DNA of 64,000 nt, taken from Candidatus Omnitrophota bacterium. Lineage in GTDB: Bacteria > Omnitrophota > Gorgyraeia > JABMRG01. The translations under genes were made by a program, and so were the position numbers. The notes beneath the pieces were generated by a model that searched no databases, was not told the origin of the DNA, and saw only the letters and a list, made by a program, of their open reading frames with translations. The stretch covers positions 15,453-79,452 of the forward strand of contig JBHPDT010000001.1 of the NCBI GenBank assembly GCA_042577545.1, written 5' to 3'. Position 1 is the first letter of the stretch. Every line of letters begins with the position of its first letter. Positions 2,456 through 62,411 of this stretch are shown piece by piece.

Positions 2456-2593
2456 GTTACATGAAGTTGAGTCTTGATGTTGCATGATGTTGCATGAGGT
2501 TATAGGATGTTACATAAGGTTACCGTAACCTAATGTAACCTCAATTAACCTTATGTAACCTCATGTAACATGTTCAAATAACATCATGCAAAC
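2456..2593. repeat. 138-bp imperfect palindrome with 10-nt periodic arms (GTTRCATNAN / NTNATGYAAC)
   Basis: Left arm gttgcatgat gttgcatgag gttataggat gttacataag gttac. Centre c at 2524. Right arm gtaacctaat gtaacctcaa ttaaccttat gtaacctcat gtaac.. Roughly 70% arm complementarity by eye. Confidence 0.85.
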
Positions 2594-4061: not shown

Positions 4062-4714
4062 AAAAAGGTATATTTATTACATTTGAGGGCACAGAAGGAA
4101 GCGGGAAATCTACGCAATCTAAGATGCTCACAGCTTTTTTAAAGAAAAAAGGGTTTAAAGTGGCCCACATATGGGATCCGGGTAGTACGTCTTTAGGGGA
4201 GTCTGTAAGAGATATCCTTCTTAATTCTAAAGATAACTTTTCGTATACGTCTGAGACTCTTCTTTATCTTGCGGCAAGAGCTCAACTGGCTGAGGAGAAG
4301 ATACTACCAGCTTTAAAGGATGGTAGTATAGTCATATGTGATAGATTTATCGATGCCACTATATCCTATCAGGGTTATGGACTTGGTATAGATGTTAAAG
4401 AGATCGAGCGGATGAATAAGTTTGTAATTAGTCCTATAAGAGAACCTGATTTGACAATTTTTTTGGAAGTGGATATCTGTAAGGGGTTAGAACGCGCACA
4501 TTCTGTTAAGGGGTTTTCTGATAGGATCGAGCGAAGAAGTATTGATTTTCATAAGAGAGTAAAAAGCGGCTATATGGCGCTTTCAAAAAAGTACCCAAAA
4601 AGAATTAAGAGGATATCCATTGAGAAGAACGATATCAAGGACACCCAAGAGATCGTGAGGAGCGCTGTTTTAGATGTCATTAAAGGACGTAAGGGGACAA
4701 GAAAGCGCGCTTGA
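4046..4714 (+). CDS. tmk: Thymidylate kinase
   Basis: P-loop FEGTEGSGKST, DRF motif (ICDRFIDAT). GTG start overlapping the cysS end by 16 nt. Confidence 0.9.
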   Translation: MAAKLKKGIFITFEGTEGSGKSTQSKMLTAFLKKKGFKVAHIWDPGSTSLGESVRDILLNSKDNFSYTSETLLYLAARAQLAEEKILPALKDGSIVICDRFIDATISYQGYGLGIDVKEIERMNKFVISPIREPDLTIFLEVDICKGLERAHSVKGFSDRIERRSIDFHKRVKSGYMALSKKYPKRIKRISIEKNDIKDTQEIVRSAVLDVIKGRKGTRKRA

Positions 4715-5642
4715 TATTCTTAAGCGAAGCGAGAGAAATTCACGCCTGGCGCATGCCTATCTTTTTTTGGGACCAAAAGGTTGCGGAAAAAAAAGAGCGG
4801 CTTTAGAATTTAGCAAGTTTCTGAATTGTGAGGATAAAAAAGACGATGCTTGCGATAAATGTTCGTCTTGTATAAAGATAGATAAGCTGGCTCATCCGGA
4901 TCTTTTTGTTGTAGAGAGAGATGAGAAAGCGACACAAATTTCAATATCTCAGATAAGGCGAATCAAGGAGCGGCTTAGCCTTAAGCCATTTGAGGCGCGA
5001 TATAATATAGCGCTTATAATGGATGCGCACTATATGAATGACGAGTCCTTTAACAGTCTTCTCAAGATATTAGAGGAGCCTGGGCAGGATACGCTCTTTA
5101 TATTAACCGCATCAAACCAGCGATCCTTGCCTGAGACCATAGTGTCAAGATGCCAGATTATCAAATTTAGGCCTTTAACAAAGAAAGAGGTCGAGAATCA
5201 TCTAAAGGATGAGCTATCACTAGACTCCGAAGAAGCTGGCATACTCTCTTCTGTTTCAGGCGGTAATTTAGAATATGCGCTGCGTCTTAAATCTGAGGAT
5301 ATGCTTAGCTTTAAGAACAGCCTGATAGATGAGATAGTTTTAAACAATGGTTTTTATAAGCAGGATCAGTCCCTGCTCTTAGGCCTAAAGAGAGAGGATC
5401 AGAAAGAGGCGTTAAATCTTCTTTTAGGATTCTATCGTGATCTGATCATATATAAGGTAACAAGGGATGATAACCTTATTATAAATATTGATAGGATCCA
5501 GGATATAGCAAAACTATCTGAATCTGTGAGTATCGAGAAAGCCCAAAAATATATAAGTATTGTAGAAAAAATAAGAGAAGCTATTAGCATAAATGTAAAT
5601 TCTAAATTAGCTATACGCACTTTGCAGGCGAATTTGACATAG
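4674..5642 (+). CDS. holB: DNA polymerase III delta' subunit
   Basis: AAA+ clamp-loader box HAYLFLGPKGCGKK, Zn module CDKCSSC, SRC motif (IVSRCQII). Confidence 0.8.
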   Translation: MSLKDVRGQESALDILKRSERNSRLAHAYLFLGPKGCGKKRAALEFSKFLNCEDKKDDACDKCSSCIKIDKLAHPDLFVVERDEKATQISISQIRRIKERLSLKPFEARYNIALIMDAHYMNDESFNSLLKILEEPGQDTLFILTASNQRSLPETIVSRCQIIKFRPLTKKEVENHLKDELSLDSEEAGILSSVSGGNLEYALRLKSEDMLSFKNSLIDEIVLNNGFYKQDQSLLLGLKREDQKEALNLLLGFYRDLIIYKVTRDDNLIINIDRIQDIAKLSESVSIEKAQKYISIVEKIREAISINVNSKLAIRTLQANLT

Positions 5643-5737: not shown

Positions 5738-5806
5738 TGTCATTCCCGCATAAGCGGGAATCCAGACATGTCGAGTATAGATCCCCGCTTTCGCGGGGAT
5801 GACATG
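5738..5806. repeat. Twin GC-rich mini-hairpins enclosed by a short closing stem
   Basis: attcccgc-ataa-gcgggaat (5742-5761) and atccccgc-tttc-gcggggat (5781-5800), bracketed by tgtcat (5738-5743) / atgaca (5799-5804). Confidence 0.85.
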
Positions 5807-5891
5807 AGAAATAGATTTTTGTTATAGTTGCAATTATTCCATGATACAGGTTGAATGAGAGATTAAATATATAAGAAAGTGGTGAGAGATT

Positions 5892-6710
5892 ATGCATAAA
5901 GTCGTTGAGGTAAAACAGAGAGAAGAAGGCAAGGTAGTACATTATCTTGTTGGTGATCTAAAGCCTACAGCTGGGGATTATGTGATTATCGAGTCTGATC
6001 GCGGCCTGGACTATGGGCAGGTGGTCTCTGCTGAAGAGATACTGCTTGATTCGAAGATGCTTCAGAATCCGATGCGCAAGATTGTGCGTATAGCGAATAA
6101 ACACGATATGGATAATGTAAACCGCAATAAACAGAAAGCGGAAGAGGTTATAAAGACCTGCAATAGGAAGATATCCGAGCATAAGCTTAATATGAAGCTT
6201 ATCGATGCTGAGCTCTCCTTTGATTGCAGCAAGATAATATTTTATTTTACCGCCGAGGAGCGTATAGATTTTAGGGAACTGGTAAAAGATCTTGCCAAAA
6301 TATTTAAGGCTCGAATAGAATTAAAACAGGTTGGCGTAAGAGATGAAGCGAGAATGTTTGGTGGTTTTGGACAATGTGGAAAAGAGCTTTGCTGCGCCAC
6401 ATTTTTAAAAGATTTTGAGCCTGTTACAATAAAGATGGCAAAGGATCAGAATTTGCCGTTAAATCCTACAAAGATCTCAGGTGTTTGTGGGCGCCTGATG
6501 TGCTGCCTCTCATATGAGCATAAGCATTATAAAGAGCGCGCTAAAGGACTACCGAGAGCAGGACAGAAGATTAAGACCCAGGAAGGGCAGGGCAAGGTAG
6601 TGGATGTTAATTATCTTAAGCGAATTGCCACTGTTGAGCTTGAGGATGGCAGACACCTGAAGATAGATTTTTGTAAAACATGTAAGACTGATAAAAATGC
6701 GAAGCACTAA
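5892..6710 (+). CDS. ricT: PSP1 C-terminal domain protein (RicT/YaaT-like)
   Basis: Cys-rich signature CGKELCCATFL..GVCGRLMCCLSYE. Position after tmk-holB as in Bacillus yaaT. Confidence 0.8.
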   Translation: MHKVVEVKQREEGKVVHYLVGDLKPTAGDYVIIESDRGLDYGQVVSAEEILLDSKMLQNPMRKIVRIANKHDMDNVNRNKQKAEEVIKTCNRKISEHKLNMKLIDAELSFDCSKIIFYFTAEERIDFRELVKDLAKIFKARIELKQVGVRDEARMFGGFGQCGKELCCATFLKDFEPVTIKMAKDQNLPLNPTKISGVCGRLMCCLSYEHKHYKERAKGLPRAGQKIKTQEGQGKVVDVNYLKRIATVELEDGRHLKIDFCKTCKTDKNAKH

Positions 6711-6836
6711 ATTCGAAATCCTAAATTCTAAACAATATCTAAATCCGAAATTCAAATGCTCCAAACCTGAGTTTTGTATTTTGGTAATTAGAGAATTAGG
6801 ATTTGTTTAGCATTTAGATATTAGGATTTAGAATTT
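6709..6836. repeat. Heptad-periodic palindromic element, AAATYCT word
   Basis: aaattcg aaatcct aaattct aaacaat.. on the left. Outer 16 nt (6709-6724) pair 15/16 with ttaggatttagaattt (6821-6836). Followed by RBS aaaggag of metG. Confidence 0.85.
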
Positions 6837-6860
6837 ATTGTTAAAGGAGCTGGTTGGCTG

Positions 6861-8416: not shown

Positions 8417-8564
8417 GTAACCAGTTGCCAGTTGCCAGAAACCAGATAGCGATAAATTATTTCCTTTTTTGACGAATAATCAGCCATTTGATTAAAATAA
8501 AATAATCTCTTATTGTCCTGGCATCTGGTCATCTTCTGGTTACTGGTTACTGGTTTCTGGTTAC
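8417..8564. repeat. Heptad-periodic palindromic element, CTGGTNN word, with long AT-rich loop
   Basis: Left arm gtaaccagt tgccagt tgccaga aaccaga (8417-8446), right arm ..ctggtta ctggtta ctggttt ctggttac (8517-8564). Outer 8 nt are perfectly complementary. The loop holds ttccttttttgac, the reverse complement of gtcaaaaaaggaa seen at 22815-22827 and 22868-22880. Confidence 0.9.
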
Positions 8565-8591
8565 TAACTTAAAGTATCTACTGGTGTTAAT

Positions 8592-9818
8592 ATGGCAACC
8601 AACAAGACCCCCATATATTTAGATTATAACGCTACAACTCCACTCCACCCCGATGTCTTCAGAGCCATGGAGCCTTTTTTTAAGGACAAATATGGCAATG
8701 CCTCAAGCCAACATCGCAAGGGGAGGGAGGCAGAAGCTGCTCTTGAGGATTCTCGGGCAATAATAGGCAATGCTCTAGGCACTGAATCAGTTGATATTGT
8801 CTTTACATCCGGAGGCACTGAAAGCGATAACCTTGCTATAAAAGGTCTCTGTCTACGCAATAAAAGAGAAGGCGCGCACATTATAACCTCAACCATAGAA
8901 CACCCCGCTGTGCTAGAGACCTGTAAGTTTCTTGAGAAAGAGCTTGGATTTAATGTTACATATATTGGTGTTAATGAGCATGGCCTGATCAACCCTGCTA
9001 ATGTAGAGAATGCATTAACAGATAAGACTATACTCGTTACGATAATACACGCGAATAATGAGATCGGTACCATCCAGCCGATAAAAGAGATCTCCCAAAT
9101 TATCAGAGAATATAATAGTGCCTGCTGTTCGATCACCGCAAACCGCAAACCGCAAACCGCAAACAGGGTTCTCTTTCACACAGATGCTGTGCAATCATTC
9201 GGAAAGGTTTCGATAGATGTGCGGGAGCTTGGGGTCGATCTTCTTTCGATCTCAGGTCATAAGATATATGGCCCAAAGGGAGTCGGGGCCTTGTATATAA
9301 GAAAGGGCATTGAAATTATCCCCCATACTCATGGCGGGCACCATGAGAGAGGATTGCGGGCTGGAACAGATAATGTTCCTGGCATCGTTGGTCTTGGAAG
9401 AGCTGTTGAGATATTGAATAAGAACTATCATAGCAGGGAGCGCATAAGAGGTTTAAGAGACAGGCTAGAAAGATCTTTGCTAGAGGAGATTAGTGACAGC
9501 AGATTAAACGGAGATATAGAGACGAGGCTTTTTAATACATCTAATATAGGATTTAAAGGATTAGAAGGAGAGGCCCTGCTAATTAATCTAGATATGGAAG
9601 GTATCTACATATCAACCGGTTCCGCGTGTACATCACGCAGCATTACCCAATCTCATGTGCTTGAGGCTATGGGTGTTGATGAGGATTATATTAAAGGTTC
9701 AGTTAGGTTCTCTCTTGGTGAATCTAATACAGATAAAGATATAGATTATTGTGTTAGAAAGATACCCCCTCTCATAAAGCATCTTCGCAAGGCTTCAAAA
9801 ACCAGTTCGGACAAGTGA
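8592..9818 (+). CDS. nifS: Cysteine desulfurase (NifS/IscS class V aminotransferase)
   Basis: PLP-lysine motif SGHKIYGPKG, catalytic Cys loop STGSACTS, HTDAVQSFGK. Carries a repeat-encoded insertion (ITANRKPQTANR). Confidence 0.9.
   Translation: MATNKTPIYLDYNATTPLHPDVFRAMEPFFKDKYGNASSQHRKGREAEAALEDSRAIIGNALGTESVDIVFTSGGTESDNLAIKGLCLRNKREGAHIITSTIEHPAVLETCKFLEKELGFNVTYIGVNEHGLINPANVENALTDKTILVTIIHANNEIGTIQPIKEISQIIREYNSACCSITANRKPQTANRVLFHTDAVQSFGKVSIDVRELGVDLLSISGHKIYGPKGVGALYIRKGIEIIPHTHGGHHERGLRAGTDNVPGIVGLGRAVEILNKNYHSRERIRGLRDRLERSLLEEISDSRLNGDIETRLFNTSNIGFKGLEGEALLINLDMEGIYISTGSACTSRSITQSHVLEAMGVDEDYIKGSVRFSLGESNTDKDIDYCVRKIPPLIKHLRKASKTSSDK
9135..9162 (+). repeat. Intragenic heptanucleotide microsatellite (ACCGCAA x4) inside nifS
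   Basis: accgcaa accgcaa accgcaa accgcaa, four perfect copies read in frame as TANRKPQTAN. Same word as the right arms of the CGGTT elements. No left arm nearby. Confidence 0.9.
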
Positions 9819-9822
9819 TCTT

Positions 9823-10632
9823 ATGCTGATTGAGACACACGCTCACCTGGATTTTCCTGAATATAATAATGATCTCGATGATGTTATAAAGAGATCGAAG
9901 GAAGCTGGTGTAGAATATATTATCAATGTAGGCGCAAACATGGAAGGATCTTTGGCATCTGTTGAACTTAGTCGCAAGTATGATATGATCTTTGCCAGTT
10001 GCGGCATTCATCCTCATGATGCCTCAACTGTAAATAAGCAGAATATAGAAAAAATAAAGGATCTAGTAGGTGAATCTAAGAAGGTAGTTGCCATAGGGGA
10101 GATCGGCCTTGATTTTTATAGAAATCTTTCACCAAGAGATAAACAACTAGAGGTCTTTGAAGAATTTGTTCTATTGTCAAAAGAATGCGACCTTCCGTTA
10201 ATACTCCATTGCAGAGAAGAAGGGCCGAGCAAAAATGAGGCTTCAGAGTTAATATTTAAGATATTGGACAATAATCTTAAGAGACCCTTTAAGGCTGTAA
10301 TGCACTGTTTCTCTCAGAATGAAGATGTATTAAGAAAGTGCCTGGATCGGGGAATGCATATCTCTTTTACCTGTAATATTACTTATCCAAAGGCTGAGGA
10401 TTTAAGAGAGGTTTTAAAGTCCGTACCTTTAGATAGGCTCTTACTTGAGACTGATTCGCCCTTTCTATCGCCTCAAGTTCACAGGGGTAAGAGGAACGAG
10501 CCAGCATATTTGAGATATCTGGTAGATGAGATTGCGAGCGTCCTAAATATGCAAGCCTCAGAGATAGAGCGAATAACCACAGAAAACGCCAAGAAATTCT
10601 TTTGGGGACGTGCACAAAGGGGACAGGCTTGA
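9823..10632 (+). CDS. tatD: TatD-family metal-dependent hydrolase
   Basis: N-terminal IETHAHLDF, internal GEIGLDF, C-terminal LETDSPFL motifs. The last 10 codons plus stop lie in repeat arm 10603-10634. Confidence 0.85.
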   Translation: MLIETHAHLDFPEYNNDLDDVIKRSKEAGVEYIINVGANMEGSLASVELSRKYDMIFASCGIHPHDASTVNKQNIEKIKDLVGESKKVVAIGEIGLDFYRNLSPRDKQLEVFEEFVLLSKECDLPLILHCREEGPSKNEASELIFKILDNNLKRPFKAVMHCFSQNEDVLRKCLDRGMHISFTCNITYPKAEDLREVLKSVPLDRLLLETDSPFLSPQVHRGKRNEPAYLRYLVDEIASVLNMQASEIERITTENAKKFFWGRAQRGQA

Positions 10633-14236: not shown

Positions 14237-14894
14237 GAGATTCAGCATAGCATTGCTTGAGAACGATCTCTTAATAGATGAGATCGAATCGGGGGCTAAT
14301 AATAGTCACTCCTCCCAGCTCATCCCCGAGATCGATAAGATGCTATTGAAAAACTTACGCGGCATAAAGGATATCGATCTGTTTTGTGTCGGATTAGGAC
14401 CAGGTTCTTTTACCGGCTTACGGATAGGCCTTACTATTATGAGGGGTTTTGCGCTCTCTCTGAAGAGACCCATTATTGGTATACCCAGCATTGATAGCTT
14501 GGCATTTAATGTCTTGGGTCACCAAGGCCTTATCTGTCCAATAATAGACGCAAAACAGCATAAGGTCTACGCGAGATTTTATGAGTGCAAAGATCAGGAA
14601 GTAAGGTCTAAGGGCAAGATTCTTCTTACTCCTATCGCGGATTTACTGAAAAGCATAAAGAGGAATGTAATATTCCTGGGTGATGGATTATCTATATATA
14701 AAGATGATATAATAAGTAAAAAGTCTAGCCTGGCAGTATTTGCGCCAGAGACGACATGGTATCCAAAGGCGGCAATAATAGGACGATTGGGCGTAGATAG
14801 ATTTAGATCTGGCGGCAAGGATAATGTTTTTAATCTCACACCACTCTATATTTATCCGAAGGAATGCCAGGTGGCTACGCGGAAACAAAGGTAA
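14193..14894 (+). CDS. tsaB: tRNA t6A37 protein TsaB
   Basis: ASKHA-fold N-terminus ILTLSVDTSS, GPGSFTGLRIG. Overlaps tsaE by 44 nt. Confidence 0.8.
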   Translation: MAKDILTLSVDTSSKRFSIALLENDLLIDEIESGANNSHSSQLIPEIDKMLLKNLRGIKDIDLFCVGLGPGSFTGLRIGLTIMRGFALSLKRPIIGIPSIDSLAFNVLGHQGLICPIIDAKQHKVYARFYECKDQEVRSKGKILLTPIADLLKSIKRNVIFLGDGLSIYKDDIISKKSSLAVFAPETTWYPKAAIIGRLGVDRFRSGGKDNVFNLTPLYIYPKECQVATRKQR

Positions 14895-15012
14895 ATTAAA
14901 AAATCAAAAGTAAAAATGCAAAATTACAGTTCAAAATTCAAAAATTGAAACCACAAAAAAATTTTAAATTTTTAATTTCATTTTTTAATTTTTATTTTTT
15001 CATTTTTAATTA
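14894..15012. repeat. Heptad-periodic palindromic element, A/T-only word
   Basis: Left aaattaa aaaatca aaagtaa aaatgca aaattac.., right ..ttttaaa tttttaa tttcatt ttttaat ttttatt. The outer aattaaaaa / tttttaatt pair. Confidence 0.75.
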
Positions 15013-16148: not shown

Positions 16149-16173
16149 GAGTTGGGAGCAGGGAGTTAGGAGT

Positions 16174-16240
16174 AAATGGGGACGGTTCTGGTTTTTATTC
16201 GCGGTAACAGCGAAAAACCAGAACCGTCCCCATTTTATTC
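16174..16240 (+). terminator. Long perfect hairpin after alr, probable intrinsic terminator
   Basis: aaatggggacggttctggttttt (16174-16196) pairs perfectly with aaaaaccagaaccgtccccattt (16213-16235), with a 16-nt loop. Followed by the T-rich ttattcttt. Confidence 0.7.
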
Positions 16241-16276
16241 TTTAAAAAATTTTTCTTAATTTTCAACATTTTTTGT

Positions 16277-16308
16277 GCTCAGACCTGTCCCCTTTAGGAC
16301 CGTCCCCA
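16277..16308. repeat. Solo copy of the 32-bp inverted-repeat arm seen at 10707-10738
   Basis: gctcagacctgtcccctttaggaccgtcccca differs from the 10707-10738 arm at 2 positions. Upstream similarity also extends (tttt..a..ttttt.tgctca). Confidence 0.85.
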
Positions 16309-16347
16309 ATTACTATCAAATAAAAGTTTACTTTTTGCAAAATAGAA

Positions 16348-16387
16348 GAATTCGTGAGATTTTACGAGAATTCGTGAGATTTTACGA
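16348..16387 (+). promoter_or_regulatory. Perfect tandem 20-mer (x2), candidate operator/activator site upstream of the pilus operon promoter
   Basis: gaattcgtgagattttacga repeated twice without a gap. Each unit contains tcgt-N8-acga dyad symmetry. It ends 32 bp upstream of the -35 box at 16420. Confidence 0.6.
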
Positions 16388-16419
16388 GTTTTTTGTTTAA
16401 AAATGGTATAAATACAACC

Positions 16420-16448
16420 TTGACCAATTAGCCCAGATACTATATATT
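16420..16448 (+). promoter_or_regulatory. Sigma70-type promoter of the MerR-like/pilus operon
   Basis: TTGACC (16420-16425), 17-nt spacer, TATATT (16443-16448). Confidence 0.55.
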
Positions 16449-16541
16449 CACATCATAGTATATCAAATGCTATCAGGTACTGCCTGAGCCGATTATCTAT
16501 AACAGGCGGTTTTAACCTGCTACAGTTTTAGGAGGATCTAT

Positions 16542-16730
16542 ATGAAAGCCGATAGATATTATTCTGCCAAGGAGGTTGCTAGGCTCTTGAGTATCTCTAA
16601 ACAGACATTGGTCAGGTATGAGTCTAAGGGTATATTTCCAAAGGCACGACGGAATAATGTAAATAGCTGGCGTGAGTATACGATAAGTGACGTAAACCAT
16701 CTTAGAAAAATTATGGGAAGATCAGCCTGA
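16542..16730 (+). CDS. Small MerR/excisionase-type helix-turn-helix protein
   Basis: 62 aa. HTH YSAKEVARLLSISKQTLVRYESKGIFP with no effector domain. RBS aggagg. First gene of the pilus cluster. Confidence 0.6.
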   Translation: MKADRYYSAKEVARLLSISKQTLVRYESKGIFPKARRNNVNSWREYTISDVNHLRKIMGRSA

Positions 16731-16761
16731 TGGCCTACCTTAGCTATCGGGGGAATTTAAT

Positions 16762-22673: not shown

Positions 22674-22687
22674 GGAGTGTACTAGAG

Positions 22688-22925
22688 AAACCAGAAACCT
22701 GTAACCAGTAACCAGGTCAGTCTAACAACATGTTCTTATATATTAGTAAGCAGAAACCTGTAACCAGAAACCAGAAAAAACATCTATATCGCCTGATCTG
22801 GTAATTGGCAACCGGTCAAAAAAGGAATTGGCTTATCATTAATCTGGTAACTGGTTACTGGCAACTGGTCAAAAAAGGAACTAGTTTAACTTTATCTGGT
22901 AACTGGTTACTGGCAACTGGTTACT
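22688..22925. repeat. Composite CTGGTNN-word element: two AACCAG arrays and three direct CTGGT-array units
   Basis: aaaccagaaacctgtaaccagtaaccagg (22688-22716), cagaaacctgtaaccagaaaccag (22751-22774), then three direct units starting atctggtaa at 22796, 22842 and 22894. The first two end in gtcaaaaaaggaa. Confidence 0.85.
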
Positions 22926-42515: not shown

Positions 42516-42593
42516 TTCTATATATCTAAAAAGATACAAATAGCCCAAATTTAGTCTTCTGCCTTAGTTGTAAGATCACCCCTTAGAATTTAT

Positions 42594-42621
42594 TTGACAT
42601 GTGGTATTATTGTGATATAAT
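42594..42621 (+). promoter_or_regulatory. Strong sigma70 promoter of the ilv-leu array
   Basis: TTGACA (42594-42599), 16-nt spacer, extended -10 TGaTATAAT (TATAAT at 42616-42621). Leaves a ~165-nt leader before ilvD. Confidence 0.7.
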
Positions 42622-42791
42622 CTCTGACTAAGTACACTAAGTATAATATAACCCCTCGCAGCTTACGTATAGATATGGGTGGCTCGGGATTCAATTCGCA
42701 CATATGATTTATGTCGTGTGGAGTTTATTCTCTGCAGTTTTGGCGAAGTGGGGCACTCCATAAATCATGTGCTCATTGAAGGAGAAAAGGC

Positions 42792-44448: not shown

Positions 44449-44635
44449 ATAATTTTAGGATTAAGTCGTAAGGATTAAGAATTAAGAATTTGTTGCTGCG
44501 ATACTTAATACTTAATACTTAATTTTTTATACTAAACAAGGATAATTTTAGGATTAAGTTGTAAGGATTAAGAATTAAGAATTTGTTGCTGCGATACTTA
44601 ATACTTAATCCTTAATCCTTAATACTAAACGAGGA
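44449..44635 (+). repeat. Tandem duplication (2 x ~93 bp) of a CTTAATN-word heptad palindrome including its RBS-like 3' flank
   Basis: Each unit is ataattttaggattaagtYgtaaggattaagaattaagaattt-gttgctgcg-atacttaatacttaat..actaaacRagg. Units start at 44449 and 44542. The second ends at the ilvB RBS. Confidence 0.9.
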
Positions 44636-44642
44636 TAATACC

Positions 44643-46316: not shown

Positions 46317-46412
46317 TTCGGTTTTCGGTTAGCGGTTCTCGGTTTTTCCGCCAAAGGCGGACCCGCCTCCGGCGGGCGTAACTACCGCACACCGTAAACC
46401 GCACACCGAACC
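46317..46412. repeat. CGGTTNN-word palindromic element carrying a GC-rich twin-hairpin core
   Basis: Arms ttcggttttcggttagcggttctcgg / ccgcacaccgtaaaccgcacaccgaacc. Core ccgcc-aaa-ggcgg a cccgcc-tcc-ggcggg (46348-46376). Positions 46333-46401 are 68/69 identical to 51552-51620. Confidence 0.9.
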
Positions 46413-46431
46413 ATAGAACAAGGATAAAAAA

Positions 46432-46902
46432 ATGAAACATATAATATCAGTTTTAGTTGAGAATAAGTTTGGAGTTCTGGCACGCGTTTCAGGCCTCTTT
46501 AGCGCAAGGGGTTTTAATATAGACTCATTAGCTGTAGGCGTGACAGAAGATCCTACAATATCCCGCATGACGATAGTTGTTAAAGGGGATGACAAGACTT
46601 TAGAGCAGGTTAAGAAACAGCTTAATAAGCTCATAGATGTTATCTCTGTAGGAGATTTTGCTAATAAAGAGCATATTGATAGAGAGCTTCTTTTGATAAA
46701 GGTCAATATTGATAAGGATGCAAAAAAAGCTGTTATTGACATATTAGAGAAAGCCCAGGCTACAATTATTAAGACAGCGGATGAGACTGTTACGGCGCAG
46801 ATAGCTTGTGATCAGGACCAGATATCGGAGCTTTTCAGTAGTCTTAATGAGTATGGCATTAAGGAGATAGTCAGGACAGGCCGTATCGCCATGGCGTTGT
46901 AA
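46432..46902 (+). CDS. ilvN: Acetolactate synthase, small (regulatory, ACT-domain) subunit
   Basis: HIISVLVENKFGVLARVSGLFSARGFNIDSL ACT signature. Follows ilvB. Confidence 0.9.
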   Translation: MKHIISVLVENKFGVLARVSGLFSARGFNIDSLAVGVTEDPTISRMTIVVKGDDKTLEQVKKQLNKLIDVISVGDFANKEHIDRELLLIKVNIDKDAKKAVIDILEKAQATIIKTADETVTAQIACDQDQISELFSSLNEYGIKEIVRTGRIAMAL

Positions 46903-46918
46903 CGCGTAATACAAACGT

Positions 46919-47057
46919 CTTCGGTTATCGGTTTGCGGTTAGCGGTTCTCGGAAAAACGTTGGCCGTAAACCGCACACCGAAAACCGTAAACCGAATTTA
47001 TATCGGTTCCCAGAAATGCAGTAGCCGTAAACCGTAAACCGAAAACCGAACACCGAA
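46919..47057. repeat. CGGTTNN-word element with one left arm and two right arms
   Basis: Left cttcggttatcggtttgcggttagcggttctcgg (46919-46952). Right 1 ccgtaaaccgcacaccgaaaaccgtaaaccgaa (46964-46996). Right 2 ccgtaaaccgtaaaccgaaaaccgaacaccgaac (47024-47057). Confidence 0.9.
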
Positions 47058-47078
47058 CTATAGAACAAGGAGCTGCAA

Positions 47079-48077
47079 ATGGCAAAGATTTATTATGACA
47101 AGGACGCGGATCTAGAACTTCTAAAAAGTAAGAAGGTGGCAATAATAGGCTATGGTATTCAAGGCAGGGGCCAGGGCCTTAATTTAAAAGATAGCGGTAT
47201 CGATGTTATTATATCTGAGTTGGAAGGCACGCCAAATTATGAGCAGGCTATCAAAGATGGTTTTAAGCCTGTTTCAGCGCAGGAAGCTGCCAAAGAGGCT
47301 GATATAATTCAGATATTGACCCAGGATCATGTTCAGGCAATGGTTTATAATGAATCTATAGCGCCAAACCTAAAAGATGGAGATGCCCTGGTTTTTTCAC
47401 ACGGATTCAACATACACTTTAAGCAGATAGTTCCTCCAAAGAACGTGGATGTTCTTATGGTAGCGCCAAAAGGTCCTGGCGCGCTAGTAAGGCAGATGTA
47501 TGTTGAAGACAAAGGCGTTCCCTGTCTTATCGCGATATTTCAGGAATTTAGTGGTAAGGCGCTGGAAATAGGGTTAGCATATGCTAAGGGCATAGGTGGT
47601 ACTAGGGCAGGCGTAATTGAGACAACGTTTGCTGAGGAGACAGAGACAGATCTCTTTGGTGAGCAGGTTGTTCTATGCGGCGGCGCTACAGAGCTGATCA
47701 AGGCGGGCTTTGAGACGCTCGTTGCTGCCGGTTATCAGCCTGAAATAGCGTATTTTGAATGTCTGCATGAGCTTAAGCTCATAACAGATCTAATTTATAA
47801 ACATGGCATAACAGGTATGCGTAATCGCGTATCTGATACTGCTGAGTATGGTGACTATTCTCGGGGCAACAGGGTTGTGGATCAGAAGACCAGAGATACA
47901 ATGAAGACTATATTATCTGAAATACAGTCTGGTAAATTTGCCAAAGAGTGGATCGATGAGAATAAGAACGGCAGAAAGAACTTTAATTCTATGCGAGAGA
48001 AAGAATCTCAGCATATGATAGAATCAGTGGGCAAAGAGTTGCGTGAACTTATGCCCTGGATGAAGAGCGAAGAATAA
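47079..48077 (+). CDS. ilvC: Ketol-acid reductoisomerase (class I)
   Basis: Rossmann [20 protein letters not shown], metal-binding region [11 protein letters not shown]. Confidence 0.95.
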
Positions 48078-48081
48078 ACGT

Positions 48082-48272
48082 TTCGTATCTCGTTGTTCGT
48101 ATCTTGTATCTCGAAAAAACACTTGAACGAGAAGGAGGCGAGATACGAGATACGAGATACTAGATACGGAAACATGTGAACAAGAAGATAGCTAGATACG
48201 GAAACAGCAGAACAAGAAAAAACAAGTGGAACTAGCTTAAGCGAGATACGAGATACTAGATACGAGATACGA
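48082..48272. repeat. ~190-bp CGTATCT/GAGATAC-word composite element, copy A
   Basis: Left arm ttcgtatctcgttgttcgtatcttgtatctcg (48082-48113). GAGATAC arrays at 48139-48168 and 48241-48272, plus a short one at 48191-48200. Left arm pairs 27/32 with 48241-48272. Modules shared with 54606-54800. Confidence 0.9.
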
Positions 48273-48275
48273 ATT

Positions 48276-51542: not shown

Positions 51543-51626
51543 TTCGGTTATCGGTTCTCGGTTTTTCCGCCAAAGGCGGACCCGCCTCCGGCGGGCGTAA
51601 CTACCGCGCACCGTAAACCGAACACC
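51543..51626. repeat. CGGTTNN-word element with GC-rich twin-hairpin core, second copy
   Basis: ttcggttatcggttctcggtttttccgccaaaggcggacccgcctccggcgggcgtaactaccgcgcaccgtaaaccgaacacc. Core at 51567-51597. Followed by tagaacaaggagg, the RBS of aroC. Confidence 0.9.
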
Positions 51627-51652
51627 TAGTTTTAGAACAAGGAGGAACAATA

Positions 51653-52774: not shown

Positions 52775-52824
52775 TTGTTGTAATATTGTCTGGCAAATAG
52801 CTGTAAAAATATGTATATATCAAA

Positions 52825-52916
52825 GAAACCAGAAACCAGAAACCAGTAACCAGAAACCAGAAGATACCAGATATCAGGAAAAACTAATCTGGAAACTGGC
52901 AACTGGCAACTGGTTA
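52825..52916. repeat. Heptad-periodic palindromic element, CTGGTNN word (asymmetric arms)
   Basis: gaaacca gaaacca gaaacca gtaacca gaaacca gaagata ccagata tcagg, then a loop, then atctgga aactggc aactggc aactggtta. Confidence 0.9.
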
Positions 52917-53503: not shown

Positions 53504-54589
53504 ATGAATATAGATAAAAGAGATCTCATCCTGCTAAACATGACGCAGGTTATCGGGTTTAAGAAGCTCAAAGCGCTTTTAGATGAGTTTAAAACTACCG
53601 AAGCTATCTTCAGCGCCCCTATAAAGAGATTAGCTGCTGTTGAAGGAATAGGCCTGGCAATAGCAAAATCTATTAAATGCGCTAAATCCAAGTTTAATGT
53701 AGATAAGGAGATTGATTTAGCCCAAAGGCTTGGCGTAGATATAAGAACGATCTTTGATAATAGATACCCTGTTTTACTTAAAGGAATATTTAGTCCACCG
53801 ATCGTTCTTTATATAAAAGGTGATTTTACAGATACCGATATCTTTTCAATAGGAATTGTAGGCGCCCGGGCTTGCACTCAATATGGCAGAAGGATGGCAA
53901 AAGAGGTAGCTGGCGAACTCTCCGATCACGATATAACAGTCGTCTCTGGTATGGCGCGCGGCATAGATACAGCCGCGCATAAAGGCTGTTTGTCTGCCGG
54001 CGGCAGGACAATAGCTGTTTTGGGAAATGGTTTGGCCTCTGTTTATCCGCCAGAGAATAAGAACTTAGCAGACCTTATAGCCAACAATGGAGCTTTAGTT
54101 TCTGAATTCCCGATGAAGACACCGCCTCACAAAAGAAATTTCCCTCAGCGTAACAGGGTAATCAGTGGACTTTCTAAGGCCATAGTTGTTGTTGAGGCAG
54201 CTAAGAAGAGCGGCGCTCTTATAACCGCGGATTTAGCAATTGATCAAGGTAAAGAGGTCTTTGCTATCCCAGGGCCCTGTGGTTCTTTGGCATCTGAAGG
54301 AACTAATAATCTGATAAGAGATGGGGCTAGGCTTATCGGCAATGCTTCAGAGCTTATCGAAGAATTAGGGGTTTTGTCTAAATCCAAATTATCTAAAAAT
54401 AATGAGGTCGGTTTTAGCAATACGTTTGAAGAAAGTATATATGGCCTCTTATCTGATGAACCACATGATGAGGATGATATTGTTGAGAGTATCTCACTTT
54501 CCGCCAAAGGCTTAAAGAAGGCGCTTCTTGATATGGAGATGAAGGGTCTTGTTAAGCAGCTTCCGGGAAGGTTGTATGTGAGGGCATAG
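53504..54589 (+). CDS. dprA: DNA-processing protein DprA
   Basis: Rossmann-like core SGMARGIDTAAHKG, FPQRNRVISGLS. C-terminal winged-helix-like tail. Confidence 0.85.
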   Translation: MNIDKRDLILLNMTQVIGFKKLKALLDEFKTTEAIFSAPIKRLAAVEGIGLAIAKSIKCAKSKFNVDKEIDLAQRLGVDIRTIFDNRYPVLLKGIFSPPIVLYIKGDFTDTDIFSIGIVGARACTQYGRRMAKEVAGELSDHDITVVSGMARGIDTAAHKGCLSAGGRTIAVLGNGLASVYPPENKNLADLIANNGALVSEFPMKTPPHKRNFPQRNRVISGLSKAIVVVEAAKKSGALITADLAIDQGKEVFAIPGPCGSLASEGTNNLIRDGARLIGNASELIEELGVLSKSKLSKNNEVGFSNTFEESIYGLLSDEPHDEDDIVESISLSAKGLKKALLDMEMKGLVKQLPGRLYVRA

Positions 54590-54605
54590 CGTACGCGTAA
54601 TATAC

Positions 54606-54800
54606 ACGTTTTGTATCTCGTTGTTCGTATCTAGTATTTCAAAAAACAGCTGCACAAGACAAAAATGAGATACAGAAACACCAGAACAAGAAAAAACAAG
54701 CCGAACTAGTTTAAACGAGATACGAGATACTAGATGCGAGATACGAAAACATGTAAACAAGAAGGAAATAAGATACGAGATACTAGATACCAGATACGAA
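54606..54800. repeat. ~195-bp CGTATCT/GAGATAC-word composite element, copy B
   Basis: Shares with copy A the blocks acgttYtgtatctcgttgttcgtatct, gaaacaNcagaacaagaaaaaacaagNNgaactagYtta, cgagatacgagatactagatRcgagatacga and aaacatgtRaacaagaag, in partly different order. Confidence 0.85.
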
Positions 54801-54814
54801 AAAAAGGGGGAAGC

Positions 54815-59850: not shown

Positions 59851-59987
59851 ATCGGTTATCGGTTATCGGTTTACGGTGTTCGCAAAATACACTAACTGCA
59901 GACTGCGTTTAACGAAAAATTAGGTTCGGTTATCGGTTTTTGGTTTACGGAAATGTATTAGCCGTACACCGTACACCGTAAACCGAT
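59851..59987. repeat. CGGTTNN-word element with two left arms and one right arm
   Basis: atcggttatcggttatcggtttacggtgttcg (59851-59882), ggttcggttatcggtttttggtttacgg (59923-59950), ccgtacaccgtacaccgtaaaccgat (59962-59987). Confidence 0.9.
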
Positions 59988-59993
59988 AAAAAT

Positions 59994-62411
<2,418 letters not shown>

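Follow-up and report, generated by a model that had tools for sequence, protein, structure and literature searches.

What kind of element fills the long spacers of a bacterial operon with hairpins whose arms are tandem 7-nt units, and why should elements built from different 7-nt words seem to share the sequences on either side of them? The question arises from a 64,000-nucleotide stretch of a Candidatus Omnitrophota genome (GCA_042577545.1, contig JBHPDT010000001.1, positions 15,453 to 79,452; hereafter the window), and in particular from its ilvN-ilvC spacer. There, a sequence-only reading had proposed a modular element with a conserved entry flank, a stem whose heptad word had been replaced in both arms in concert, a conserved exit carrying the Shine-Dalgarno (SD) sequence of the next gene, and surplus arms that allow bistable folding. 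By comparing spacers within the window and with syntenic relatives, we show that these are dispersed heptad hairpins that have been copied between operon spacers, in which the word turns over while the host junctions persist, and which lack the features of terminators. As to their nature, we think it reasonably probable that they are non-coding elements resembling repetitive extragenic palindromes and their mosaics (REP/BIME) or MITEs (small transposable elements of the inverted-repeat kind), with a word that varies between genomes.

Heptad hairpins and their copies in the spacers

The window holds ~50 genes, every one on the + strand, at a GC content of 39.7%. Tandem arrays of period 7 occur 25 times, against 0-3 for each other period from 4 to 12, and Tandem Repeats Finder recovers the same arrays; they are heptanucleotide simple sequence repeats (SSRs), in that head-to-tail 7-nt units stand in at least three copies and are over-represented relative to other unit lengths. 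The arrays are predominantly intergenic, all but two (9135-9164 and 60893-60970) lying in spacers, and hairpins with arms made of tandem 7-nt units stand in most spacers of at least 90 nt; of the 21 spacers of at least 40 nt, about 14-15 carry an element. For almost every array an inverted partner lies at a distance of 10-60 nt, and the pair makes up an interrupted hairpin of 60-190 nt overall with arms of 20-35 nt each and internal 7-nt periodicity, in which helices of 5-7 bp are separated by small mismatches. As in the paired arrays of Xanthomonas, two arrays of one word are in convergent orientation and near enough for a stem-loop. Within each unit a core of 4-5 nt is kept and 2-3 positions vary; in the CGGTT family, a stem arm comprises 3-6 heptads, which read CGGTTnn in the left arm and, as their complement, nnAACCG in the right arm. 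Compared with shuffled sequences, the hairpins fold significantly better (z-scores -2.8 to -3.9); they start 0-27 nt 3' of the upstream stop and end 3-26 nt 5' of the next start. Their word families are:

1653, 46317, 46921, 51545, 59851, 59926 and, inside a gene, 60893: CGGTTnn
48083, 54611: CGTATCT
8421, 22686, 52824: CTGGTnA
44457, 44550: TTAAGnA
6695, 14893: two A/T-rich word families
5645: GCGTATT
2466: a variant with 10-nt units

Units of 10 nt (window 2466-2580) and, in the syntenic relative L001, of 9 nt (GTTACGRAN, 10150-10295) stand in a like inverted-array layout, so that the periodicity is mostly, not strictly, 7.

The ilvN-ilvC spacer comprises the following parts:

46900-46902: ilvN stop codon TAA, directly upstream of the 5' flank
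46903-46920, + strand: stop-proximal 5' flank CGCGTAATACAAACGTCT, 14/18 identical to its L001 ortholog and 14/16 to 54594-54609
46921-46952, + strand: left arm of copy 1, ~4.6 CGGTTnn heptads
46964-46996, + strand: right arm R1, nnAACCG heptads, pairing with the left arm in helices of 5-7 bp with 1x1 mismatches between them
47003-47023, + strand: start of copy 2, a lone TCGGTT left-arm unit and the loop AGAAATGCAGTAG
47024-47058, + strand: right arm R2, belonging to the truncated copy 2; most of it is unpaired in the minimum-free-energy fold
47061-47071, + strand: tail TAGAACAAGGA, which includes the ilvC SD AAGGAG, ending 6 nt before the ATG at 47079

What the sequence-only reading had seen here is accurate: the one left arm (46919-46952) and two right arms (46964-46996, 47024-47057) are present, as is the two-left, one-right layout of 59851-59987, and all ten strings that it quoted were located, among them cgcgtaatacaaacgtct at 46903-46920 and cgcgtaatatacacgtt at 54594-54610. 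The second unit (47003-47058) aligns with complete elements and retains only one left-arm unit, and its loop (AGAAATGCAGTAG; AGAAATGCAGTAGCC) is homologous to that of the 59926 element (GGAAATGTATTAG; GGAAATGTATTAGCC). Copy 2 is thus a 5'-truncated tandem copy, and the dispersed hairpin element stands in this spacer twice in tandem, first complete and then shortened at its 5' end. Further spacers hold related arrangements:

44449-44639, + strand: ilvD-ilvB spacer, a 93-bp unit x2.1 at 93% identity
46317-46424, + strand: ilvB-ilvN spacer element, directly after the ilvB stop, 4+4 CGGTT heptads, tail TAGAACAAGGA
48078-48275, + strand: ilvC-leuA spacer, one left arm and two to three right arms in a composite element of the CGTATCT word
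51545-51643, + strand: pilD-aroC spacer element with 3+3 heptads; copy of 46317, whose tail it shares
54587-54589: dprA stop TAG, upstream of the entry flank at 54594
54594-54814, + strand: spacer after dprA, entry flank CGCGTAATATACACGTT and then a copy of the composite CGTATCT-word element
54611-54640 (left), 54715-54746 and 54771-54799 (right): arms of the post-dprA composite
59851-59985, + strand: xerC-kdtA spacer, two tandem CGGTT elements, the second complete (59926-59985)

The 46317 and 51545 elements agree in their arms, in their tail and in a GC-rich loop of 31 nt that is identical in both, and differ by one heptad per arm, the unit number having changed in both arms together (4+4 and 3+3). 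A composite of ~190 nt is common to the spacers at 48078 and 54590; it is made up of one left arm, a right arm that is partial, tails inside the composite and more right arms. Between ilvC and leuA, its internal tails GAACAAGAAG/GAACAAGAAA lie 3' of right arms. Each 93-bp unit of the ilvD-ilvB spacer is a whole TTAAGnA-word hairpin with an SD-like tail, ACTAAAC(A/G)AGGATAAT, so that this spacer holds a duplicated element and a fossil SD, and the right arm of the first xerC-kdtA element (AACTGCAGACTGCG, ~59895-59908) has decayed by C-to-T changes. The elements are dispersed copies and not local oddities. Arm numbers are unbalanced in 5-6 spacers; judged from their alignments, the imbalance reflects copies that stand in tandem, have been truncated or have decayed, and would have arisen by tandem duplication, truncation and decay.

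The identical 31-nt loop is itself a GC-rich double mini-hairpin (CCGCCAAAGGCGG ACCCGCCTCCGGCGGGCG), nested at 46348-46378 and 51567-51597 in a genome of 40% GC, and this pair may be a second, smaller element inserted in the first. After dprA, the longest open reading frame (ORF) called for a HEAT-repeat gene begins at ATG 54734, within the heptad array (54734-54814); GTG 54815, 3' of GGGGGAAGC, is a plausible start and probably the true one, and heptad arrays can thus mislead gene callers.

Tails and flanks

The shared exit proved real, within limits set by word family. The 11-mer TAGAACAAGGA has exactly three copies in the window (46414-46424, 47061-47071, 51633-51643), where the sequence-only reading had placed them, and its variants at 44533, 48178, 48210, 54684 and 54754 are likewise exact; by our own calculation, ~0.03 exact copies per 128 kb would be expected at random, and with one mismatch allowed there are 4 matches against 1.7 expected. 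That reading had itself raised the objection that the tail might be the usual ribosome-binding site (RBS) context of most genes. It is not: AACAAGGA lies at most 35 nt from the start in 3/50 genes, all three of them behind CGGTT-word elements. An identical 11-mer at three genes shows that copying or conversion reaches through the tail up to AAGGA, and 3' of AAGGA the window sequence is orthologous to L001 again. The tail is probably the 3' end of the CGGTT-family copy unit, up to and including the AAGGA of the SD.

The shorter motif AACAAG occurs at most 25 nt 3' of the right-arm end in 8/24 cases against 0.26 expected (Poisson P ~4e-10), of which only ~5 are independent, some elements being copies of one another. 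Among these cases are the TTAAG element and right arms inside the CGTATCT composites, and tails that stand behind such internal right arms indicate that arm and tail were copied as a unit. An unbiased comparison of 12-mer flanks finds the 3' tail significant within the CGGTT family only (P<0.003); across families, 3' flanks are not significant in this comparison (P=0.88), and the 5' signal depends on one pair.

That pair consists of the 46903 and 54594 sites, which match at 14/16 positions where the maximum of 400 shuffles is 13. No further copy of the entry flank was found in the window, and, as a general feature of these elements, a conserved entry flank does not hold up: it is seen at two window sites and in the ortholog of one of them. 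The motif A[AC]ACGT[TC] stands directly 5' of the left arm in 3/20 cases against 0.02 expected; read from the sequence, it is partly complementary in the CGTATCT family to AAAACATGT behind the first right arm, and in that family it therefore belongs to the stem base. The flank at 46903-46920 is most likely inherited host spacer that ends in A[AC]AC, the element putatively starting with the GTYT that comes next, and the same would apply to most of the shared 5' flank.

Occupied and empty spacers in relatives

Comparison with other Omnitrophota separates what is carried by the element from what belongs to the host. In L001, a syntenic Candidatus Omnitrophota metagenome-assembled genome (MAG) whose IlvC is 80% identical to that of the window, each of the four ilv spacers contains a heptad hairpin of the word TCGCATA/TATGCGA with a common loop GGGATTTTTAAAAGCG, and the pilD-aroC spacer has a different word again, TAGGTCC. 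A third syntenic relative, L201/L202, has 11 period-7 arrays against 0 of other periods, with the word ATAGCGN (ATAGCG[TCG]). In two more (L205 and L207; IlvC ~82%, a divergence like that of L001) the spacers are empty and 3-30 nt long, with 18 or 29 nt between ilvN and ilvC and 3-4 nt between ilvC and leuA. A high-GC, chimeric-looking contig, L204 (P0122), was discarded from the comparison. An exact look-up of the window's IlvC gave no record, although a protein 100% identical to it exists at NCBI (P0121, on an 89-kb contig).

When the window is compared with L001, 4-fold degenerate sites prove saturated (203/533 identical, 38%). The ilvN-ilvC 5' flank nevertheless agrees at 14/18 positions, and L001 keeps the tails ahead of ilvN, ilvC and aroC as AGAACA(A/G)GG(A/G). 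The empty L207 spacer, TAG-AATATAAAACAC-TGGGAAGGA, equals the left flank of L001 (GAATATAAAC) joined directly to its right flank (AAACAC...AAGGGAG), and AAAAACGAAGGAG in L205 resembles AGAACAAGGAG in the window. From flanks that are kept while silent sites are saturated, and from the empty site of L207, we infer that most of the flank sequence was inherited as host spacer, into which stems were inserted and later replaced. The proposed modular organisation survives in part: spacers of L001 have another word yet kept flanks, but these flanks are probably host sequence and not parts of one ancestral element. Less remains of the idea of a common ancestor whose word drifted or was replaced in place by compensatory changes, which looks doubtful. 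The copying of whole stem cassettes between loci explains word replacement better, 46317 and 51529 having the 31-nt loop in common and 48078 and 54590 the composite. We also considered the relatedness of words as a sign of common descent, TCGGTTA, TCGTATC, TCGCATA, ATAGCGT and CTGGTTA differing by 1-2 bases, and set it aside because random heptamer pairs are, by our estimate, equally close in some rotation or strand ~18% of the time.

Hairpins of at least six word families fill nearly every long intercistronic spacer of this gene array, from just 3' of the stop codon to ~3-26 nt before the next start. They may have originated by heptanucleotide slippage and inverted duplication and spread by cassette copying, whether through hairpin transposition or through conversion of short tracts with anchor points close to the stop codon and the SD. 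In the polycistronic mRNA each would most likely form an interrupted hairpin that leaves the A-rich tail and the SD single-stranded, and could serve as an intercistronic insulator, stabiliser or processing site, as REP/BIME do, rather than as a switch. The locus and its syntenic relatives thus offer a compact natural experiment in which like spacers are empty, carry one word or carry another while host junctions are kept, and which makes insertion and replacement boundaries, turnover rates and the expression effect of an intercistronic hairpin with an SD tail testable.

Several points weigh against this interpretation. The term "dispersed" refers to 2-6 copies per family within 64 kb, and the sequences in the empty-site alignment of L207 with L001 are short and A/T-rich. 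No transposase, target-site duplication or terminal inverted repeat tied to the elements was found. Any function at the RNA level is only something that we infer. The sense strand folds better than the antisense in 10/24 elements, and in L001 the antisense is ~20 kcal/mol more stable than the sense, so that there is no signature of selection on the sense transcript and an origin at the DNA level fits equally well. (Counts of G·U versus A·C pairs in minimum-free-energy folds are biased by the folding algorithm and were not used.)

Foremost among the alternatives, albeit unlikely in our view, is that the hairpins are neutral by-products, slippage-expanded heptanucleotide SSRs inverted by intrastrand template switching, with neither function nor mobility. 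Heptanucleotide repeats are, in the summary of Mrazek 2007 given in PMC4679880, the most over-represented long SSRs in many bacteria, with slippage as the proposed cause. The missing sense-strand bias agrees with such an origin, as do single-arm arrays in compact relatives (ATAGTAT ATAGCAT ATAGTTT between pilD and aroC of L207; AAAAATT x3 between dprA and topA) and the wide occurrence of like arrays: period-7 arrays with inverted partners are also found in Deltaproteobacteria (L039), Thermoguttaceae (L042), Endomicrobia (L073) and Nitrospinae (L076), and CGGTTnn x4 is present in at least 120 metagenome contigs of many unrelated organisms at 38-72% GC, none of them close to the window and none adding a copy from this lineage. 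However, distant window spacers share non-repetitive parts (the 31-nt loop, the AAATGNANTAGCC loop, tails and internal segments of composites), for which local slippage alone is insufficient and copying between loci is required, and corresponding spacers are occupied in three genomes despite the turnover of the word.

A bolder proposal, which we also regard as unlikely, is that Omnitrophota, and patchily other phyla, harbour an unrecognised class of cassette-like intercistronic elements whose heptad stems are exchanged precisely between fixed host junctions by a dedicated mechanism. If so, the junctions would lie after A[AC]AC by the stop codon and at the AAGGA of the SD, the agent could be a hairpin-specific Y1 transposase or hairpin-templated gene conversion, spacers would keep a hairpin and a portable ribosome-binding tail while the word turned over genome-wide, and the process would occasionally write peptide insertions into protein loops.

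A more specific agent is possible though rather improbable: REP- or REPIN-like units moved as single-stranded hairpins by a Y1 transposase of the IS200/RAYT type, inserting 3' of A[AC]AC without target duplication. GTYT directly follows A[AC]AC in three elements (46921, 48083 and 54611; 0.02 expected), the ilvN-ilvC element of L001 likewise joins AAAC to GTTT, the empty L207 site fits precise insertion, and hairpins stand in frame in genes, as insertions would give. In L201/L202, a relative rich in heptad hairpins, a PF01797 (Y1_Tnp) gene of 296 residues lies between kdtA and lpxK (L201 11372-12337, L202 1866-2814). Against this, the gene is not flanked by heptad hairpins, being bounded instead by a ~30-nt direct repeat of the kdtA 3' end (GGTTGAACCT(T)AA(A)TGT(G)TAAATATTTA); tblastn with the L202 protein matches L201/L202 only, and neither the window nor the other fetched loci; the A[AC]AC/GTYT junction is absent from 17/20 left arms; and the GTAG/CGTC head of REPs is not consistently present, CGTC occurring at 46915-46918 only and other elements having CGTT or nothing comparable. 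The PF01797 gene and the junction are thus without a direct link. In L001 the element has AAAC at both junctions, where it is also the stem base; one filled/empty comparison gave no clear duplication, and no insertion sequence was found. The window has a single ORF of 805 residues, a fusion of kdtA and lpxK, at the place where L201/L202 has the transposase gene.

Folding, related repeat systems and neighbouring features

The bistable switch of the sequence-only reading, a regulatory RNA module in which surplus arms form alternative folds that expose or occlude the downstream SD, is very unlikely. It could draw on the genuine imbalance of arms and on the ilvC-leuA spacer, where only 3 nt separate the end of the last right arm from the leuA ATG and this arm, when paired, could affect initiation. 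At ilvN-ilvC, however, pairing of the left arm with R1 (L:R1) is the minimum-free-energy fold at -57.3 kcal/mol, and blocking R1 gives L:R2 at -45.8 kcal/mol, 11.5 worse, while blocking R2 costs only 3.6 kcal/mol. The pairing probability of the SD (47064-47071) is 0.25 in L:R1, 0.24 with R1 blocked and 0.00 with R2 blocked. No arm is complementary to the ilvC SD, which leaves no basis for a bistable SD switch in this spacer. R1 is moreover transcribed before R2, kinetically favouring L:R1; the surplus arms bear marks of truncation or decay (the one-unit left remnant at 47003, C-to-T near 59895); and Rfam covariance models at the gathering threshold gave no riboswitch, leader or sRNA match across the window. 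Least credible is that the units are binding-site arrays in RNA or single-stranded DNA, ~7 nt per subunit of a cold-shock-domain or other OB-fold protein, with the hairpin incidental: a kept core with variable positions is what repeated recognition sites would show, CspB binds one protein per heptamer (as reviewed in PMC4679880) and in Nostoc a factor that binds heptamers has been postulated (bioRxiv 10.1101/2022.06.06.494920), but at least six unrelated words in one architecture and one genome would call for many specificities, an inverted partner of matching length is nothing that binding sites need, and 9- and 10-nt units occur in a like layout.

Intrinsic (Rho-independent) terminators were considered and ruled out, no U-tract following the stems. 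The arms are followed by A-rich tails, a T-tail of the terminator type follows no element, and none of the eight terminator-like sites located between 42000 and 61000 coincides with any element; the ilv-leu-aro genes are therefore probably co-transcribed.

The origin and role of heptanucleotide repeats are not settled (PMC4679880, PMC4692102), and the window elements are probably a REP/MITE-like variant of their known inverted pairs. One such repeat, GGGAATC in Xanthomonas, forms 70-75 convergent array pairs per genome that are able to fold into stem-loops (Rehm et al. 2015, PMC4692102). As here, tandem 7-nt units lie in intergenic regions, and related species differ in repeat length but agree in type, single or paired (PMC4692102). 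Xanthomonas, however, has one G-rich word, discussed as G-quadruplex-forming, whereas several non-G-rich words coexist in the window, the word differs at orthologous spacers, loops and tails are shared, and the position is between co-directional operon genes. TAACTGA repeats of Beggiatoaceae, Cyanobacteria and Bacteroidetes, like the heptamers of cyanobacteria, are tandem, mostly intergenic and often end just upstream of starts (MacGregor 2015, PMC4679880); with several words per genome in cyanobacteria and a patchy phyletic distribution (PMC4679880), these repeats resemble ours, yet they are almost always direct arrays, with one inverted case among 170 sets in BOGUAY, whereas here nearly every array is a hairpin arm.

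The cyanobacterial members of that group, the STRR heptamers, were reportedly described by Mazel and colleagues in 1990. The REP/BIME (REPIN) sequences of Proteobacteria are high-copy imperfect palindromes of operon-internal and inter-operon spacers, often clustered in tandem or inverted order and of species-specific sequence, and act as mRNA stabilisers or processing sites. The BOX elements of pneumococci and the Correia elements of Neisseria have modular conserved ends, a variable number of internal units and stable intergenic RNA hairpins, and can carry downstream expression signals; unlike here, their internal units are ~45 nt (boxB) or absent, and neither is known for heptad periodicity or word diversity. 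Rickettsia palindromic elements (RPEs) insert in frame in protein genes and add a surface peptide segment, a likeness with the hairpin at 60893-60970; they are ~100-150 nt, without heptads and mostly intragenic, whereas intragenic copies are the exception here. REPs are defined by a conserved GTAG or CGTC tetranucleotide at one end (PMC3733652). They are imperfect palindromes of 20-40 nt with that head and a RAYT gene; the window elements, at 60-190 nt and 7-nt periodic, exceed this unit size, no RAYT link was found, and no Y1_Tnp homolog was found in the 64-kb window. Set against MITEs, which have terminal inverted repeats, a target-site duplication and a related autonomous insertion sequence, the elements are inverted repeats as a whole, with no clear duplication seen in the one filled/empty comparison and no insertion sequence found. 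We found no description of such elements in Omnitrophota in the literature searched, and four features appear to be new: several words coexisting in one architecture, replacement of the word at orthologous spacers between conserved junctions, family-specific loops and SD-bearing tails, and in-frame copies in genes.

One in-frame copy is

60893-60970, + strand: complete CGGTT-word hairpin, in frame in the kdtA-lpxK fusion ORF (59994-62411), encoding ...SVIGSRCAVSGSHLDENRKPKTENRN...

In the Kdo transferase part it adds ~22-25 residues in a surface loop relative to the closest homologs, which are 55% identical, so that the insertion boundaries are not fixed exactly. Other Omnitrophota have different heptad inserts in the corresponding kdtA loop, of CCATCGG units (L203 5764-5880) or of ATACGAC units around GC-rich hairpins (L201 10905-10995). 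A perfect array, ACCGCAA x4.3 at 9135-9164, lies without an inverted partner in frame in a class-V aminotransferase gene (ORF 8592-9818), where its translation is TANRKPQTAN; two unrelated contigs from metagenomes (L090 and L115) contain identical 30-mers. In L201, the aroC-aroK spacer (4483-4963) holds more than 400 nt of ATAGCGN heptad blocks broken by an N assembly gap, indicating that such arrays can expand greatly and break assemblies. The annotation of Omnitrophota MAGs calls for caution on all three counts, since arrays can extend ORF calls (ATG 54734), can occur in frame (in kdtA and a class-V aminotransferase gene) and can interrupt assemblies (the L201 N gap).

Hairpins elsewhere in the window, and the genes and promoter of the operon, are:

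1653-1727, + strand: CGGTT-word hairpin with the tail GTATATAATACGGGAG
2466-2580, + strand: hairpin with 10-nt units TGATGTTGCA / GTAACCTAAT, in the architecture of the heptad elements
6695-6837 and 14893-15011: A/T-rich heptad hairpins
8421-8565, + strand: CCAGTTG/CTGGTTA-word hairpin, the word family also at 22686-22925 and 52824-52913, the A/C-rich arm always first
42594-42621: sigma-70-like promoter before ilvD, perfect 12/12 consensus with an extended -10
42792 ilvD, 44643 ilvB, 46432 ilvN, 47079 ilvC, 48276 leuA, 51653 aroC, 53504 dprA: Pfam-confirmed genes

Between the promoter and ilvD (region 42516-42791) lies a leader of ~170 nt without an Rfam match, which could be an uncharacterised leader or attenuator of the ilv-leu operon. 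Outside the heptad elements, region 16149-16761 contains a perfect hairpin with a 20-bp stem (GGGGACGGTTCTGGTTTTT...AAAAACCAGAACCGTCCCC, ~16189-16241), a 20-nt unit x2.1 (16347-16388) and a small ORF resembling a helix-turn-helix protein from ~16542. At ~5739-5807 stand two GC-rich palindromes, TTCCCGC-ATAA-GCGGGAA and TCCCCGC-TTTC-GCGGGGA, bracketed by GTCA...TGAC.

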